Shown: positions 10,655-15,106, numbered from the stretch's first letter. The stretch: DNA of 40,668 nt from a virus (IMGVR_UViG_2534682060_000017:1-40668), one strand, 5' to 3'. Program-made: numbers and translations. The notes: a model not told the origin generated them from the letters alone.

Positions 10655-13159
10655 ATGGAGAAAACATTTATTTCGGAAATATTATCAGCTTATCATCATT
10701 TACAATTAGAAAATGCAAATGAAGCAGCCACAAGACTAAAAGTGATAGATCGGGTATTAAAGGAAGTCTTGATGTGGACTGATAGTGATATAAAACCAGA
10801 AGAGCATGTGACTGAAGATGGTTTGACAACTTATGCTGATTATATACTAAAAACAGCTAATATTGCTCTTGTTGTTGAAGCTAAAAAGGCAGGGCCAAGC
10901 TTTAGTACAATTCCAGGAAAAAGAAAAATAAAGCTAAGTAATAGTTTTTTACAAAGTGATCTTGGTGAAGCGATAATACAAGCTAGAGATTACGCCAGGA
11001 AATTTGGTATAGATTATGCTGTCGCTACGAATGGAAATGTATGGGCATGTTTTGCAGCTCAGAGGCATGACAATGTCAAATTTAATGATTCAATAGCGCT
11101 TGTGTTCTGGTCGTTAGAAGATTGCTTAAATGATAATTATCAAGAATTCTATGATTTACTTAGTCGTGAAAATGTTATATCAGGAAGTCTAGAAACAGCA
11201 CTTTTAGGTCGCGTCGAAAATCAAATAGAATTTAGAAAATTAAGAAATTTTTATTCGCAACAAAACAGAACACAGACAAATAATCCAATATATCATTTGA
11301 TTGCTGATGAATTAAGGTTGGCTTTTTCTGATTCTATACTTTACTTGGATGAAGACTCCTTTGATAAATGTTATGTTTCAACACCAGAAACTATGAGATT
11401 CGATAGTAAAATTAGAATGAATATAGGTAGGCGTTCAAGTGTGCTGAATGGTGAAGTACTAAAAGGGCTTAATGATAAAGATACAAAAAGAATAGTTGAT
11501 AAGTTTCAGGTTAAAGGGAAGAAAAAAATAAAAGTCAGGAATGACAAACCTCTCGCGATCTTGTTACTTGGGACTGTAGGTGCAGGTAAAACAACATTTC
11601 TTCATTACATGAGAAAGGTTAGAATAAAAGAGTTTTTTTCAAATCAATGTGATATCTTGACGCCGCATTGGGTTCATATAGACTTTCTAGATAATCCATC
11701 AGAAAGTTCAATAGTCGATTTTATTTATAAATCAATTCTGGAATATATCAATAAGCATCCTGTTTTGAGTAATAAGGATTTTGTATTTGATGCATTTCGA
11801 GAAGATATTGAGGCGATAAAATCAGGACCTCTTTTTTTATTGAGTGAGGATCAAAAAAATACCAGAATCTCGGATTTTTTATATGAACAATATAAAAAGA
11901 TAAAACCTTATGTTGATAAAATAATAAGTCGCGTTACAAAAGAGACATCTTTTTTTCTTGTTATTGATAACGTTGATCAGATCGAGTTTGATGATATCCA
12001 GTCCCGGATATTTACCGAGTCATTTTCAATTTCCAGAGCGCTTTCATTAAATTTAGTACTTTCATTGAGGCAGTCTACATTTATCAAACATAAAAACTCA
12101 CCTGCTATAGATGCTTTCGATTTTGAAGTTATACAAATAGATCCACCGAGAATAAGTAGTGTGATTGCAAAACGCTTTGCACTAGTAAAGTATATGACAA
12201 GTAATAAAAGTGGAAATTTTATTGCAGAAAATGGCGCTAAAGTTGTATTGGATGATATATCACAATTAGTCGATATTATTAGTGGGTCTGTGCTGGGAAG
12301 TGAGATTGGAACACGTATTGAAGTTCTTGCTACGGATGATGTTCGATTAGCATTACGTATGACTCGTGAGTTCTTAGAAAGAGGGTATACGAGTCCAGGT
12401 AAAGCAGTACAAATTTTCAGAGAACAAGGAAGATATCTTCTTCCACGTCATGAGGCATTTAGAGCTATATTACTGGGTACTGAGTTGACTTATAGCGAGT
12501 CAACGTCGACTATTGCGAACCCGTTTGATTCGAATTTAGCTGTGACACAAATGCAATTATTGAGGCTGTACATTCTTAATGTTATCGTTTCGTATGCAAG
12601 CGATCCCGGATTCAGACAAATCGATGGTTCGGTAATAACTGAAAAGTTAAGGTTAATTGGTATAGGTGACTCTTTCACGCATCGAGTTCTCGTTGATTTA
12701 TGCAATAAAAGGTTTTTGTTCACCGTAAATCACGGAGATCCAACAGCTTCATCAAGTTTCATTCCTTCTCGGCTGGGGGGGTATATTGCAAAAGAACTTA
12801 TTAGTAATTTCACGTTTATAGAGTGTATGCTTTATGATACATATATTGCTGATGCTAAGGTATGGAGTAGATTAAGAGATCTGAGTGCTAGAATTGAGTC
12901 TGAAAGAGATGTAATAAAAAGGATCACAATGCGTGTAAGTCGAGCAAAAACTTTCTATTATCAAATGGAAAAACTTATTTCACCGCTTTGTTCCGAAGCT
13001 ATTATAAGAGGGTTGCCTTCACAATGGTGTTCTAACCCTCTTCAGGAGCGTTTACCTGAGTTAAGAAAAGAACTAAGAAGAGTTCTTAATTCTGCAAAAA
13101 AAACATATCAACCGAAACAGGATGATTCGTCTAAGTATTTCCTTGATGAAACGGTTTAA
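10655..13159 (+). CDS. Candidate anti-phage defence protein: N-terminal HsdR-N/Mrr-like PD-(D/E)xK nuclease domain fused to P-loop NTPase (Walker A GTVGAGKTT, Walker B FFLVIDNVD) and C-terminal helical domain
   Basis: 834-aa ORF, markedly AT-rich versus flanking phage genes; N-terminus ATRLKVIDRVL..LMW ... ADYIL ... VVEAKK fits the HsdR-N/Mrr D...ExK pattern; Walker A at aa 306-314, hhhhDN Walker B at about aa 433-439; flanked by AT-rich non-coding DNA. Confidence 0.85.
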   Translation: MEKTFISEILSAYHHLQLENANEAATRLKVIDRVLKEVLMWTDSDIKPEEHVTEDGLTTYADYILKTANIALVVEAKKAGPSFSTIPGKRKIKLSNSFLQSDLGEAIIQARDYARKFGIDYAVATNGNVWACFAAQRHDNVKFNDSIALVFWSLEDCLNDNYQEFYDLLSRENVISGSLETALLGRVENQIEFRKLRNFYSQQNRTQTNNPIYHLIADELRLAFSDSILYLDEDSFDKCYVSTPETMRFDSKIRMNIGRRSSVLNGEVLKGLNDKDTKRIVDKFQVKGKKKIKVRNDKPLAILLLGTVGAGKTTFLHYMRKVRIKEFFSNQCDILTPHWVHIDFLDNPSESSIVDFIYKSILEYINKHPVLSNKDFVFDAFREDIEAIKSGPLFLLSEDQKNTRISDFLYEQYKKIKPYVDKIISRVTKETSFFLVIDNVDQIEFDDIQSRIFTESFSISRALSLNLVLSLRQSTFIKHKNSPAIDAFDFEVIQIDPPRISSVIAKRFALVKYMTSNKSGNFIAENGAKVVLDDISQLVDIISGSVLGSEIGTRIEVLATDDVRLALRMTREFLERGYTSPGKAVQIFREQGRYLLPRHEAFRAILLGTELTYSESTSTIANPFDSNLAVTQMQLLRLYILNVIVSYASDPGFRQIDGSVITEKLRLIGIGDSFTHRVLVDLCNKRFLFTVNHGDPTASSSFIPSRLGGYIAKELISNFTFIECMLYDTYIADAKVWSRLRDLSARIESERDVIKRITMRVSRAKTFYYQMEKLISPLCSEAIIRGLPSQWCSNPLQERLPELRKELRRVLNSAKKTYQPKQDDSSKYFLDETV

Positions 13160-13192: not shown

Positions 13193-13879
13193 TACTAAAA
13201 TAAATTTGGAAGTGCTGTTACAATAGATAGAGGCTCATTGTCGAGTCTCTGTTTTAATTAGTTGGTTATTTTATGTTTATTTATTTCGATATCAGATAAA
13301 AAATCAATAAAGACAGCTTTGTTGCTAGTATTTAATTCTGTAGTAATATACGGATAGTTGTTTTCTGATATACCACATATCTTTAATTGTTGGTTTTTGT
13401 CTTAGTTGATTTAAATTCAATCAACCACTCCAGCAACCTAAATATTCCTCCAGTTCCAAACAATGAATATATGATCAGGAGCATAGCACTGCTCTTCATT
13501 AAAAATTTACACTTAGTTTTGAGAAAACTGCTTACGTTATCTTAACTCTGAATTTGTACATCTTAAGAAGTGCTAGTTATATTTAGTTGTTGTGTTCCAT
13601 GTTTTACAGAAAAATCAGAGAAACTGTACTCAATAGTTGCATTTCATCACTGATGAGACCGCCTTGTATTTATCAGGACTGGTGTACGTCCGATACAGAA
13701 AGTTGTCGTGCTGGTCCTCAAATGTGCGCTGGCTATTGCGGGTAATGGCAATTTATTGTCTTGCTATTGTCCTTATGGATCGCCTTTCTGATTGATTTTA
13801 TATTGGCGAGGTAACGGGAGTTAAGTACAATGGCTGCGGGTGCTTGAGGCTATCTGTCTCAGGCATGAACACCAAAGGC

Positions 13880-13960
13880 AGATAGAGAAAAGCCCCAGTT
13901 AACATTACGCGTCCTGCAAGACGCTTAACATTAATCTGAGGCTCAATCTATGAACGGCAA
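13880..13960 (-). ncRNA. Predicted Sok-like antisense RNA region (approximate)
   Basis: Inference from hok/sok architecture: antisense RNA normally overlaps the hok leader/upstream ORF start; possible minus-strand promoter TTGCCT-17-TAACCT near 13955-13985; boundaries uncertain. Confidence 0.25.
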
Positions 13961-14006
13961 ATCTAGGTTAGCCTCTTACGTGCCGAAAGGCAAGGAGAAG
14001 CAGGCT

Positions 14007-14162
14007 ATGAAGCAGCAAAAGGCGATGTTAATCGCCCTGATCGTCATCTGTTTAACCGTCATTGTGACGGCACTGGTAACGAGGAAAGACCTCTGCGAGG
14101 TACGAATCCGAACCGGCCAGACGGAGGTCGCTGTCTTCACAGCTTACGAACCTGAGGAGTAA
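14007..14162 (+). CDS. hok: Hok/Gef family type I toxin
   Basis: Product MKQQKAMLIALIVICLTVIVTALVTRKDLCEVRIRTGQTEVAVFTAYEPEE closely resembles Hok/Gef; in-frame upstream ATG at 13950 gives a mok-like extension; mRNA leader resembles the R1 hok leader. Confidence 0.8.
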   Translation: MKQQKAMLIALIVICLTVIVTALVTRKDLCEVRIRTGQTEVAVFTAYEPEE

Positions 14163-14230
14163 GAGACCTGGCGGGGGAGAAATCCCTCGCCACCTCTGAT
14201 GTGTCAGGCATCCTCAACGCACCCGCACTT

Positions 14231-14251
14231 AACCCGCTTCGGCGGGTTTTT
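14231..14251 (+). terminator. Rho-independent terminator (AACCCGC-TTCG-GCGGGTT + T-run)
   Basis: GC stem, tetraloop, 5 T; also serves as hok mRNA 3' end. Confidence 0.6.
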
Positions 14252-14377
14252 CGTCGCATTATGAGGTTGTAATTTTAGCTACCATTAGACTATCCTAAGG
14301 ATCTCAAACAGATCTATTTTGCATCAAATTTGGTGCATGGCTTTGCCAATAATCGGAAAACAAAAGGACTCATTAGT

Positions 14378-14557
14378 ATGAGCTGCCCACTCAAAAAACA
14401 CACGCGGTTGAGTATTCCGCCTCGCGATAAAAGCGTTGTGGCAGTCCCTCGCCCAGCGATTGATGAAAACTGCGCACATCGTGAACAAGTGAAAAATGCT
14501 TTTGATTTCGGTTTTTCTCGTTATGAGAAAGCCATGGAAGAACTTTCAAAAGTGTAA
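14378..14557 (+). CDS. Putative antitoxin-like small protein upstream of Doc-family toxin
   Basis: 59-aa ORF from ATG 14378 with AAGGA RBS; stop 18 nt before the Doc-like start; identity by position only. Confidence 0.4.
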   Translation: MSCPLKKHTRLSIPPRDKSVVAVPRPAIDENCAHREQVKNAFDFGFSRYEKAMEELSKV

Positions 14558-14575: not shown

Positions 14576-15061
14576 ATGGCTGAGATTGTTGAAGGAGTGC
14601 ATTACCTTACGGTTGATGATCTTGTTGAAATCAATCGTTCCCTAATTGAATTACAGACGCCAGATGAGCCCGTTGGTGTTCTGAGTCCAGATAACTTAAG
14701 TTCTTCTCAGGCCCGTCCCAGCATGGTTCGATGGTATGAACAGACTAATGACATGTTTGTACTGGCATCGGTATTGATTGAAAGTCTGATTCAGAATCAT
14801 CCGTTTGCTAATGCGAACAAACGAACAGCTATGATGGCTGGTTACGTCTTCTTGTTGTTGAATGGCTATGAGTTAACAGCACCAGGCGATGAAATCGTGG
14901 AAATGGCAGAGGGACTGGCCTGCAAAACCTATACTCGAGAAGATCTCGAGAACTGGTTGTGTTATTGGTCTCGCGCGTATGACAGCCGGGAATTATGTAA
15001 AACAGGCGCAACTATTGTTTTGTATGAAACTATCAAGCTTAGAATAGAACAGCAAAACTAA
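14576..15061 (+). CDS. doc: Fic/Doc family toxin (death-on-curing-like)
   Basis: Contains the Fic/Doc signature HPFANANKR (HxFx(D/N)(A/G)NKR) followed by MMAGYVFLLLNGYEL. Confidence 0.75.
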   Translation: MAEIVEGVHYLTVDDLVEINRSLIELQTPDEPVGVLSPDNLSSSQARPSMVRWYEQTNDMFVLASVLIESLIQNHPFANANKRTAMMAGYVFLLLNGYELTAPGDEIVEMAEGLACKTYTREDLENWLCYWSRAYDSRELCKTGATIVLYETIKLRIEQQN

Positions 15062-15077: not shown

Positions 15078-15106
15078 AACCCGCTTCGGCGGGTTTTGTT
15101 TTTTCC
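15078..15106 (+). terminator. Rho-independent terminator, second copy of AACCCGCTTCGGCGGGTTTT
   Basis: Identical 20-nt hairpin to that at 14231-14251, followed by GTTTTTT. Confidence 0.6.

Follow-up and report, generated by a model that had tools for sequence, protein, structure and literature searches.

Results

A hok/mok/sok locus in a lambdoid prophage

Positions 13803-14251 of the window, by which we mean the whole 40,668-nt stretch of DNA that was analysed, hold a complete hok/mok/sok type I toxin-antitoxin locus, situated within a lambdoid E. coli prophage. From its left end, the prophage carries integrase, exonuclease, repressor and Cro-like genes and replication genes, followed by the Q antiterminator, lysis genes, terminase, portal and tail genes. 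It looks complete from integrase to tail, with Q, lysis and terminase modules, and its top match is a prophage located beside yccA in strain EC42405 (98.8% identical across 90% of the first 25 kb).

The locus has the replication module on one side and the DUF968/RusA/Q block on the other; it is a cargo module of the early-right region and belongs to the hokD/hokW subgroup. It is flanked by candidate toxin or defence cargo, namely an 834-aa ORF of P-loop/NACHT-like type and a phd/doc-like pair. The 834-aa NTPase-like gene, which occupies the same cargo slot as the hok locus, is uncharacterised. PADLOC gave no match for Hok, for the phd-like ORF or for a 119-aa ORF of the window, and the 834-aa ORF and Doc had weak matches only.

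A hok/sok-like type I locus with a fold-back mRNA had been proposed at this place from the sequence alone, and every family test that we ran at the sequence level agreed with it. The span proposed, 13836-14251, proved to be that of the predicted transcript, the promoter (13803-13831) being just outside.

The toxin gene and the mok frame

Two overlapping reading frames, each with its own Shine-Dalgarno sequence, make up the coding part of the locus:

13937-13941, plus strand: mok Shine-Dalgarno sequence GAGGC, with an 8-nt spacer to ATG 13950 (read from the sequence)
13950-14162, plus strand: mok-like ORF, 70 aa, sharing the hok frame and the hok stop codon (from the ORF list)
13992-13997, plus strand: hok Shine-Dalgarno sequence AAGGAG
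14007-14162, plus strand: hok toxin gene, HokD allele, 51 aa (Pfam PF01848 and identity to K-12 HokD)

The 51-aa ORF had been assigned to the Hok family, and it matched the Pfam HOK_GEF model (PF01848) with an E-value of 1.2e-23 (82.9 bits, for a cut-off of 22). Its product is identical to HokD (RelF) of E. coli K-12 over 51 of 51 residues (100%), and HokD is also the PGAP name for the protein identical to the window toxin. The NCBIfam Hok models scored under their curated cut-offs (48.5 versus 73 bits for the Hok subfamily model); this was not counted against membership, because the Pfam match and the exact identity to HokD are decisive. The residues conserved in the family, C15, T17, L29, C30, E31 and E40, are all there in the window toxin. 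In a five-way alignment of Hok proteins, C15, T17, T25, R26, L29, E31 and E40 were invariant, together with others, and these correspond, with an offset of one, to the conserved positions of a recent Hok survey (bioRxiv 10.1101/2025.08.07.668861). HokD served as a toxic positive control in that preprint. Comparison with functional homologues revealed no inactivating change: judged by its sequence, the window toxin is free of any, being identical to K-12 HokD.

The in-frame upstream extension from ATG 13950, previously described as mok-like, was recovered in the ORF list as a frame of 70 aa. It overlaps hok and has its own Shine-Dalgarno sequence, which aligns with the GAGG of R1 mok; translational coupling of the two frames is predicted. 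The mok ATG kept a constant position in all 19 alleles of this region among 104 phage contigs (see below). In mokC/hokC of K-12 and mokW/hokW of phage 933W, the two frames have a common stop codon, as in the window; R1 mok and K-12 mokB, by contrast, are read in another frame than hok. By sequence comparison, the hokC/hokD/hokW subgroup typically has its mok in frame, and this feature is no anomaly.

The predicted hok transcript

Four features define the predicted mRNA:

13803-13831, plus strand: hok promoter, with -35 TTGGCG (13803-13808), a 17-nt spacer and -10 TACAAT (13826-13831)
13838-14251, plus strand: predicted full-length hok mRNA, 414 nt (from the start of the Rfam hit, the end of the terminator and the fold)
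14169-14192, plus strand: 3'-UTR hairpin with a 10-bp stem (present in all folds)
14231-14251, plus strand: intrinsic terminator AACCCGC-UUCG-GCGGGUU followed by UUU (from folding)

In a consensus scan the hok promoter had 9 matches out of 12, and R1-type, hokC and 933W loci share its spacing to the conserved 5' end GGGUGCUUGAGG. The position of TTGGCG-17-TACAAT at 13803-13831 places the predicted transcription start at G13838. Over 13838-14251, the full-length RNA folded with an MFE of -173 kcal/mol (z -7.7, against 100 shuffles).

The leader had been noted to resemble the 5' region of R1 hok mRNA. This resemblance was borne out by Rfam, with a hit of RF01794 over the whole model on 13838-14012 (110 bits versus a gathering score of 59, E 2.5e-24), and by alignment, in which all leader landmarks of the window, 933W, phage Tritos, K-12 hokC and an R1-type plasmid lined up. 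The R1 hok sequence used for comparison is 100% identical to IncF plasmids. Although named "sok", the RF01794 model describes the strand of the hok mRNA and extends from its +1 to the start codon of hok, so that the match attests leader homology and is not a proof of an antisense RNA.

At the other end, the 3'-UTR hairpin is expected, by analogy with R1 (PMC9841398), to protect the mRNA at its 3' end after processing. The terminator hairpin (7 bp, -11.8 kcal/mol, z -4.3) is common to K-12 hokD. A pattern scan listed neither this terminator (14231-14251) nor the sok promoter, and both were evaluated by other means; the terminator escaped because its stem absorbs two T's, which is a limit of the scan. 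The hok 3' UTR (14171-14252) also aligned with isrK (Rfam RF01394), an Hfq-binding sRNA of prophages, at 26.4 bits for a gathering threshold of 50. This alignment covers one hairpin and a generic terminator; the sequence is not counted as an isrK member, and an evolutionary link was set aside as unproven.

Predicted fold-back of the mRNA and RNA switch

The elements of the switch known from R1 were located as follows:

13838-13849, plus strand: tac (translational activator), the mRNA 5' end, GGGUGCUUGAGG (from folds and conservation)
13840-13866, plus strand: metastable 5' hairpin of the nascent RNA, made of tac and the segment directly downstream (from the fold)
13890-13897, plus strand: ucb, upstream complementary box, the anti-Shine-Dalgarno of mok (from folds)
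13971-13976, plus strand: dcb, downstream complementary box, GCCUCU (from 3'-truncated folds)
14212-14224, plus strand: fbi, fold-back inhibitory element, CCUCAACGCACCC (from folds, position and covariation by class)

In the R1 model, tac/fbi pairing closes the full-length RNA and ucb hides the mok Shine-Dalgarno sequence; the translatable form obtained after refolding is the form that Sok binds, and a metastable 5' hairpin keeps the RNA untranslated during transcription (PMC9841398). In silico, the window RNA reproduced this published switch step by step. The first 29 nt of the nascent RNA formed an 11-bp hairpin (-16.5 kcal/mol, z -4.3). In the full-length fold, both MFE and centroid, 13838-13849 was paired with 14212-14224 (6 + 6 bp, C14218 being bulged) and ucb, at 13891-13897, was paired with 13937-13943, so that the mok Shine-Dalgarno sequence was sequestered. 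When the RNA was truncated at its 3' end (at 14195, 14200, 14205 or 14209), tac was paired with ucb (G13838-C13896 through U13845-A13890) and the mok Shine-Dalgarno sequence with dcb (G13938-C13975 through G13941-C13972), each in 4 folds out of 4.

These modelled structures are consistent with the original prediction of a fold-back that keeps the full-length mRNA inert. The complementarity between the two ends is real (GCGGGTGC at 13836-13843, GCACCCGC at 14219-14226) and, with 12 bp, longer than had been stated; the 3' partner had been given at about 14220, and the 5' one, given at about 13846, was some 9 nt off.

When the 12-nt 5' end was paired with 899 other 90-nt segments of the window, a single one gave a duplex of -21.1 kcal/mol or below; among 2000 shuffled versions of the 3' UTR, two did equally well. 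Homologues were then compared, using 77 hok loci fetched with one genome per species. Complete flanks and a recognisable 5' end were available for 55 loci. In all of them, the segment that pairs best with this end lay 46-58 nt past the hok stop, in most cases a few nt ahead of a terminator hairpin. The fbi of the window, about 50 nt past the stop codon, shares this position with 50 other distinct loci. Across homologous loci, RNAs starting with GGGUGC have a GCACCC partner, and those starting with GGCGC a GCGCC partner. For the GGGUGC class the cognate duplex reached -18.6 kcal/mol versus -12.9 for the cross-class one, and for the GGCGC class -18.0 versus -16.5 or -14.5 kcal/mol.

The proximal tac/fbi helix was kept in 23 distinct homologues, with 87% of cells paired; the distal half was left out of this count, as the bulge makes its alignment ambiguous. 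At pair 4, C-G was present in 18 of these sequences and U-A in 5, with no mismatch. The number of pairs changed on both sides showed no excess over shuffles (369/500). The single compensatory pair is probably one evolutionary event, which makes covariation thin evidence when taken alone. The case for the helix is therefore built on conservation, on energetics, and on the cognate versus non-cognate duplex energies, and not on rich covariation. In 94 distinct phage-contig homologues, tac is invariant. The covariation result is in line with an earlier phylogenetic analysis of the family, cited in PMC9841398.

The predicted Sok antisense RNA and its promoter

On the minus strand, two features were placed:

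13993-13965, minus strand: sok promoter, with -35 TTGCCT (13993-13988), a 17-nt spacer and -10 TAACCT (13970-13965) (read from the sequence)
13958 to 13888, minus strand: predicted Sok-like antisense RNA, 71 nt (from its correspondence to the annotated sokW of 933W and from the fold)

A Sok-like gene had been anticipated on this strand around 13880-13960, and the gene predicted here falls within that range. It is cis-antisense, overlaps the mok start, and comprises a promoter, a tail and a predicted terminator hairpin. The predicted RNA begins with a single-stranded 5' tail of 14 nt, continues into a long hairpin and ends in a U tail (-30 kcal/mol, z -5.6); SokW of 933W folds into the same shape. 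In the window, the -35 and -10 boxes of the sok promoter are arranged like those of R1 sok (TTGCGC, 17 nt, TATCCT), which led us to place the Sok start near 13958. The promoter has 7 consensus matches out of 12, and it was missed by the consensus scan because its -10, TAACCT, has just 3 out of 6.

This promoter is identical in sequence to the sokW promoter of 933W/Sp5, and probe YO-597 of the hokW-sokW paper (PMC8621323) is identical to the minus strand of the window at 13995-13966. In Sp5, sokW RNA was detected, mutations in the -10 inactivated the promoter, and sokW counteracted HokW (Takada et al., PMC8621323). We read primer YO-421 of that paper, which alters the -10, as the mutagenesis primer for the promoter-less version.

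Relatives and distribution of the locus

The mokW/hokW/sokW locus of 933W/Sp5 (AF125520; Takada et al. 2021, PMC8621323) sits at a comparable place in a lambdoid prophage, and the 933W copy is 92.8% identical to the window over 417 bp. The two have a mok of 70 aa in frame, a hok of 51 aa and a Sok of 71 nt at equivalent coordinates, and their tac, fbi, ucb and sok promoter are identical. Both contain an 18-nt extension of the Sok hairpin, whereas R1 and hokC are without it. They differ at the C-terminus of the toxin (...FTAYEPEE in the window versus ...FVDYESEK in HokW), and at about 8 positions in the Sok 5' tail and mok codons 2-5 (GCCGUUCAUAGAUU in the window versus GUUCAGCAUGGAUU in 933W). 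Unlike the window, 933W lacks the CCCGC/GCGGG terminator directly past fbi.

The K-12 hokD (relF) gene of the cryptic prophage Qin encodes the same toxin (51/51 residues), with DNA 98.8% identical to the window from the hok Shine-Dalgarno sequence to the terminator, fbi included, and synteny downstream with a DUF968/ydfU-like gene. However, it corresponds to 13993-14251 of the window only: the hok promoter, tac, ucb, the mok start and the sok gene are missing, and unlike the window copy it sits behind relBE. The window therefore represents the complete form of that locus, a tidy hokD locus of which K-12 keeps just the 3' half.

The hok/mok/sok (parB) locus of R1/IncF has the same set of elements in the same order: promoter, tac, metastable hairpin, ucb, Sok target, mok Shine-Dalgarno sequence, dcb, hok Shine-Dalgarno sequence, hok, 3' hairpin, fbi and terminator. 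Its Hok is only 41% identical to the window Hok, its mok is in the +1 frame whereas that of the window is in frame, and its 5' end and fbi are GGCGC/GCGCC versus GGGUGC/GCACCC. R1 is plasmid-borne, with a demonstrated role in post-segregational killing, whereas the window locus resides in a prophage. The hokC/mokC/sokC (gef) locus, at a non-prophage site of the E. coli chromosome, has an in-frame mok of 69 aa (versus 70 in the window), a Hok 82% identical to that of the window, the same 5' end GGGUGCUUGAGG, and a Sok hairpin made shorter by the absence of the extension. In K-12, IS186 lies alongside hokC and the best 5'/3' duplex is much weaker, which we read as a loss of the fbi region.

DNA similar to 13780-14280 was found in 4943 of 5426 complete E. 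coli genomes, at a median of two places per genome and a maximum of ten; the gene name given in these genomes, where annotated, is hokD. With the same query, matches were also obtained in plasmids (1598 records) and in phages (110 records), Stx phages among them. In the Hok survey, hok was present in nearly 80% of Enterobacteriaceae genomes and fourfold enriched in prophages (bioRxiv 10.1101/2025.08.07.668861). Neither the system nor the kind of place it occupies is new: it is annotated in phage 933W and characterised in the Sakai prophage Sp5, and the locus brings no new biology. That a reading of the bare sequence rightly recognised hok/sok and its fold-back makes it a clean positive control. 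A preprint on the Pas sRNA cites the hokW paper and holds nothing on the locus itself.

Discussion

Mechanism and role

By homology to R1 hok/sok, and with the in silico folds in its favour, we infer the following course of events. A constitutive promoter at 13803-13831 would produce a stable hok mRNA of 414 nt, whose 5' tac element would be held in a local hairpin as long as the RNA is nascent. In the finished RNA, tac (13838-13849) would pair with fbi (14212-14224) and ucb would cover the mok ribosome site, so that the full-length RNA is proposed to be neither translated nor bound by Sok. Slow trimming from the 3' end would take off fbi; tac would then capture ucb, the mok site would open, and translation of mok from 13950 onwards would drive synthesis of the 51-aa membrane toxin. 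While the short-lived 71-nt Sok is made, its 5' tail would bind the mok initiation region, blocking translation and marking the duplex for RNase III, and the toxin would appear only once sok transcription stops. The dependence of translation on mok and the action of Sok are described in PMC4147584.

The likeliest setting for such a trigger would be prophage induction, or a shut-off of host transcription. After induction, Hok would help to permeabilise the cell and to release phage, as does the 93%-identical hokW-sokW of Sp5. The latter is a working toxin-antitoxin pair, for which the production of Sok, its instability, its repression of Hok and the cutting of the duplex by RNase III were shown: after mitomycin C, sokW RNA disappears and HokW rises in the inner membrane, in a RecA-dependent manner, and deletion of hokW-sokW halves phage release and yield (PMC8621323). 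A role in phage release is most likely for the window copy too, by extrapolation from this one study of one related prophage. Taking mechanism and role jointly, the locus is very probably a complete and apparently functional module of the hokD/hokW subgroup, carried as lambdoid cargo, with an R1-type switch and a function in induction and release.

The same mechanism might mainly serve another end, either stabilising the prophage by killing cured cells, or aborting infection when a lytic superinfecting phage shuts off transcription. The 933W record labels mokW/hokW "prophage maintenance", R1 hok/sok on a high-copy plasmid lowers the plating of T4 (in the passages of PMC8621323 and PMC4147584 that deal with it), and the locus is found among the candidate toxin or defence cargo described above (the 834-aa ORF and the phd/doc-like pair). 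However, no PADLOC model matches Hok here, and the sole direct experiment on a prophage copy showed help in phage release and not exclusion. We consider it rather unlikely that either of these is the main role, but both are compatible with the release function, and the readings are not mutually exclusive.

Alternatively, the locus could be an inert relic which, despite its intact appearance, is silent or fails to kill, as do chromosomal hok loci in laboratory strains, and which now has no role. Chromosomal hok loci tested earlier gave no post-segregational killing and no activation by rifampicin, according to a passage quoting those tests in bioRxiv 10.1101/2025.08.07.668861; moreover, K-12 hokD is a 5'-truncated derivative that retains the equivalent of 13993-14251 only, and the sok and hok promoters of the window are just moderate consensus matches. 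Yet all regulatory elements are intact, and among 94 distinct phage-contig sequences tac is invariant, ucb and the Sok hairpin nearly so. The toxin has the sequence of a protein of demonstrated toxicity, experiments show that the 93%-identical hokW-sokW functions, and the host prophage appears complete. Taken together, these points make a relic improbable.

Finally, a plain gene for a small membrane peptide, without long-range RNA control and with 5'/3' complementarity by chance, is hardly credible: short G+C-rich complements do occur, and one other 90-nt segment of the window pairs equally well, but this reading is effectively refuted by the chance controls (about 1 in 900 segments, 2 in 2000 shuffles), by the homologous position of the partner, 46-58 nt past the stop and before the terminator, by the joint change of both sides between the GGGUGC and GGCGC classes, and by the presence of the pairing in the MFE and centroid structures.

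Within the preferred reading, that of a functional module acting at induction, one further effect can be suggested. As hok is co-directional with the early-right genes, read-through from these after induction could collide with the convergent sok promoter, and the level of Sok could thereby be lowered.

A hypervariable patch in the Sok tail

The 22-nt patch at 13943-13964, which comprises the 5' tail of Sok together with the start codon of mok and its codons 2-5, was found to be hypervariable. It was compared in 12 distinct hokD-class leaders, then in 94 distinct sequences from 104 phage contigs; its immediate flanks, which the retrieval pattern had fixed, were left out of the comparison. Mean column entropy was 0.71 for the patch, versus 0.00 for tac, 0.03 for ucb, 0.09 for the Sok hairpin and 0.23 for the hok coding sequence. 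The 104 phage contigs contained 19 alleles of the patch, each of 22 nt, with the ATG position fixed. One and the same HokD protein occurs with at least 8 tail alleles, and the co-resident copies L010, L021 and L032 of CP178302.1 carry different ones.

In R1, the Sok tail is said, from the 1994 work of Thisted et al., to be the part that first touches hok mRNA. A diversification of the patch towards non-cross-reacting antitoxins is a reasonable reading of its variability. We tentatively propose, as a possible explanation, that 13943-13964 is a fast-evolving specificity cassette, making the Sok antitoxins of co-resident prophages orthogonal. If so, the Hok of each prophage would respond only to the loss of its own Sok, and selection for non-cross-reaction would help to account for the up to ten related copies that polylysogens tolerate. 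The Hok survey explicitly placed mok and Sok outside its analysis (bioRxiv 10.1101/2025.08.07.668861).

By codon position, variation within the patch was 1.0 at the first, 1.1 at the second and 0.5 at the third. The first and second positions thus vary more than the third, so that the conservation is not one of peptide sequence.

Variation around the mok start codon

A short hypervariable patch (window 13943-13964) spans the 5' tail of the predicted antisense RNA Sok together with the beginning of mok (its ATG and codons 2-5). Among 104 phage contigs, 19 alleles of this patch were found, and its entropy was 0.71, versus 0.00-0.09 for the adjacent RNA elements. In all alleles, both the length of the patch and the position of the ATG were fixed. 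The same HokD toxin was found combined with different patch alleles, indicating reassortment, and copies co-resident with one another carried differing alleles. The patch may be a determinant of Sok specificity.

The mok start also differs in a relative of the hokD class, locus L023 (positions 540-620; MAG scaffold JAGTSE010000010.1), where the mok ATG is displaced by 2 nt. Reading the aligned sequence by eye, mok would there occupy a different frame, with a TGA stop codon that overlaps the start codon (ATG) of hok, so that both layouts of mok-hok coupling appear to be found inside a single subgroup.

Within the toxin gene, the hok Tyr47 codon (UAC) is followed by a G, and the resulting TACG (14145-14148) is the A-to-I editing motif of TadA.

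The hok 3' end and the downstream gene pair

Immediately 3' of hok lies a type II toxin-antitoxin-like pair, resembling phd/doc:

14378-14557, 59-aa ORF upstream of the Doc/Fic gene, without any family match
14576-15061, Doc/Fic-family toxin gene (TIGR01550, 1.5e-37; Pfam Fic, 6.9e-12)

The 20-nt hok terminator, AACCCGCTTCGGCGGGTTTT, is present in two identical copies in direct orientation (14231-14250 and 15078-15097), which lie at a distance of 847 bp and flank the pair on both sides. The cryptic prophage Qin of E. coli K-12 has one copy only. The arrangement resembles the outcome of a cassette insertion or exchange at the hok terminator.

The hok 3' UTR (14171-14252) gave a full-length match to the Rfam family isrK, an Hfq-binding sRNA, at 26.4 bits, below the gathering score of 50 (E 0.003, for a search space of 1.6 kb). 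The match is made up of one hairpin and a generic terminator, and the resemblance is probably not meaningful.

Sequences upstream of hok

On the 5' side of the hok promoter, approximately 235 bp of non-coding DNA (13565-13800) are without annotated feature, and the ORF listing gave none longer than 52 aa. This segment is common to about 600 E. coli genomes, at 86-89% identity.

Further upstream, an 834-aa ORF (10655-13159) has weak similarity only, to P-loop/NACHT and to HSDR_N_2, a restriction-nuclease N-terminal domain; no NCBIfam family matched it. In the nearest genome, the region is annotated as two separate hypothetical CDSs. Together with its 400-bp downstream spacer, the ORF was found in only 8 of the 5426 complete E. 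coli genomes searched. A role as cargo of the defence type is possible for this gene.
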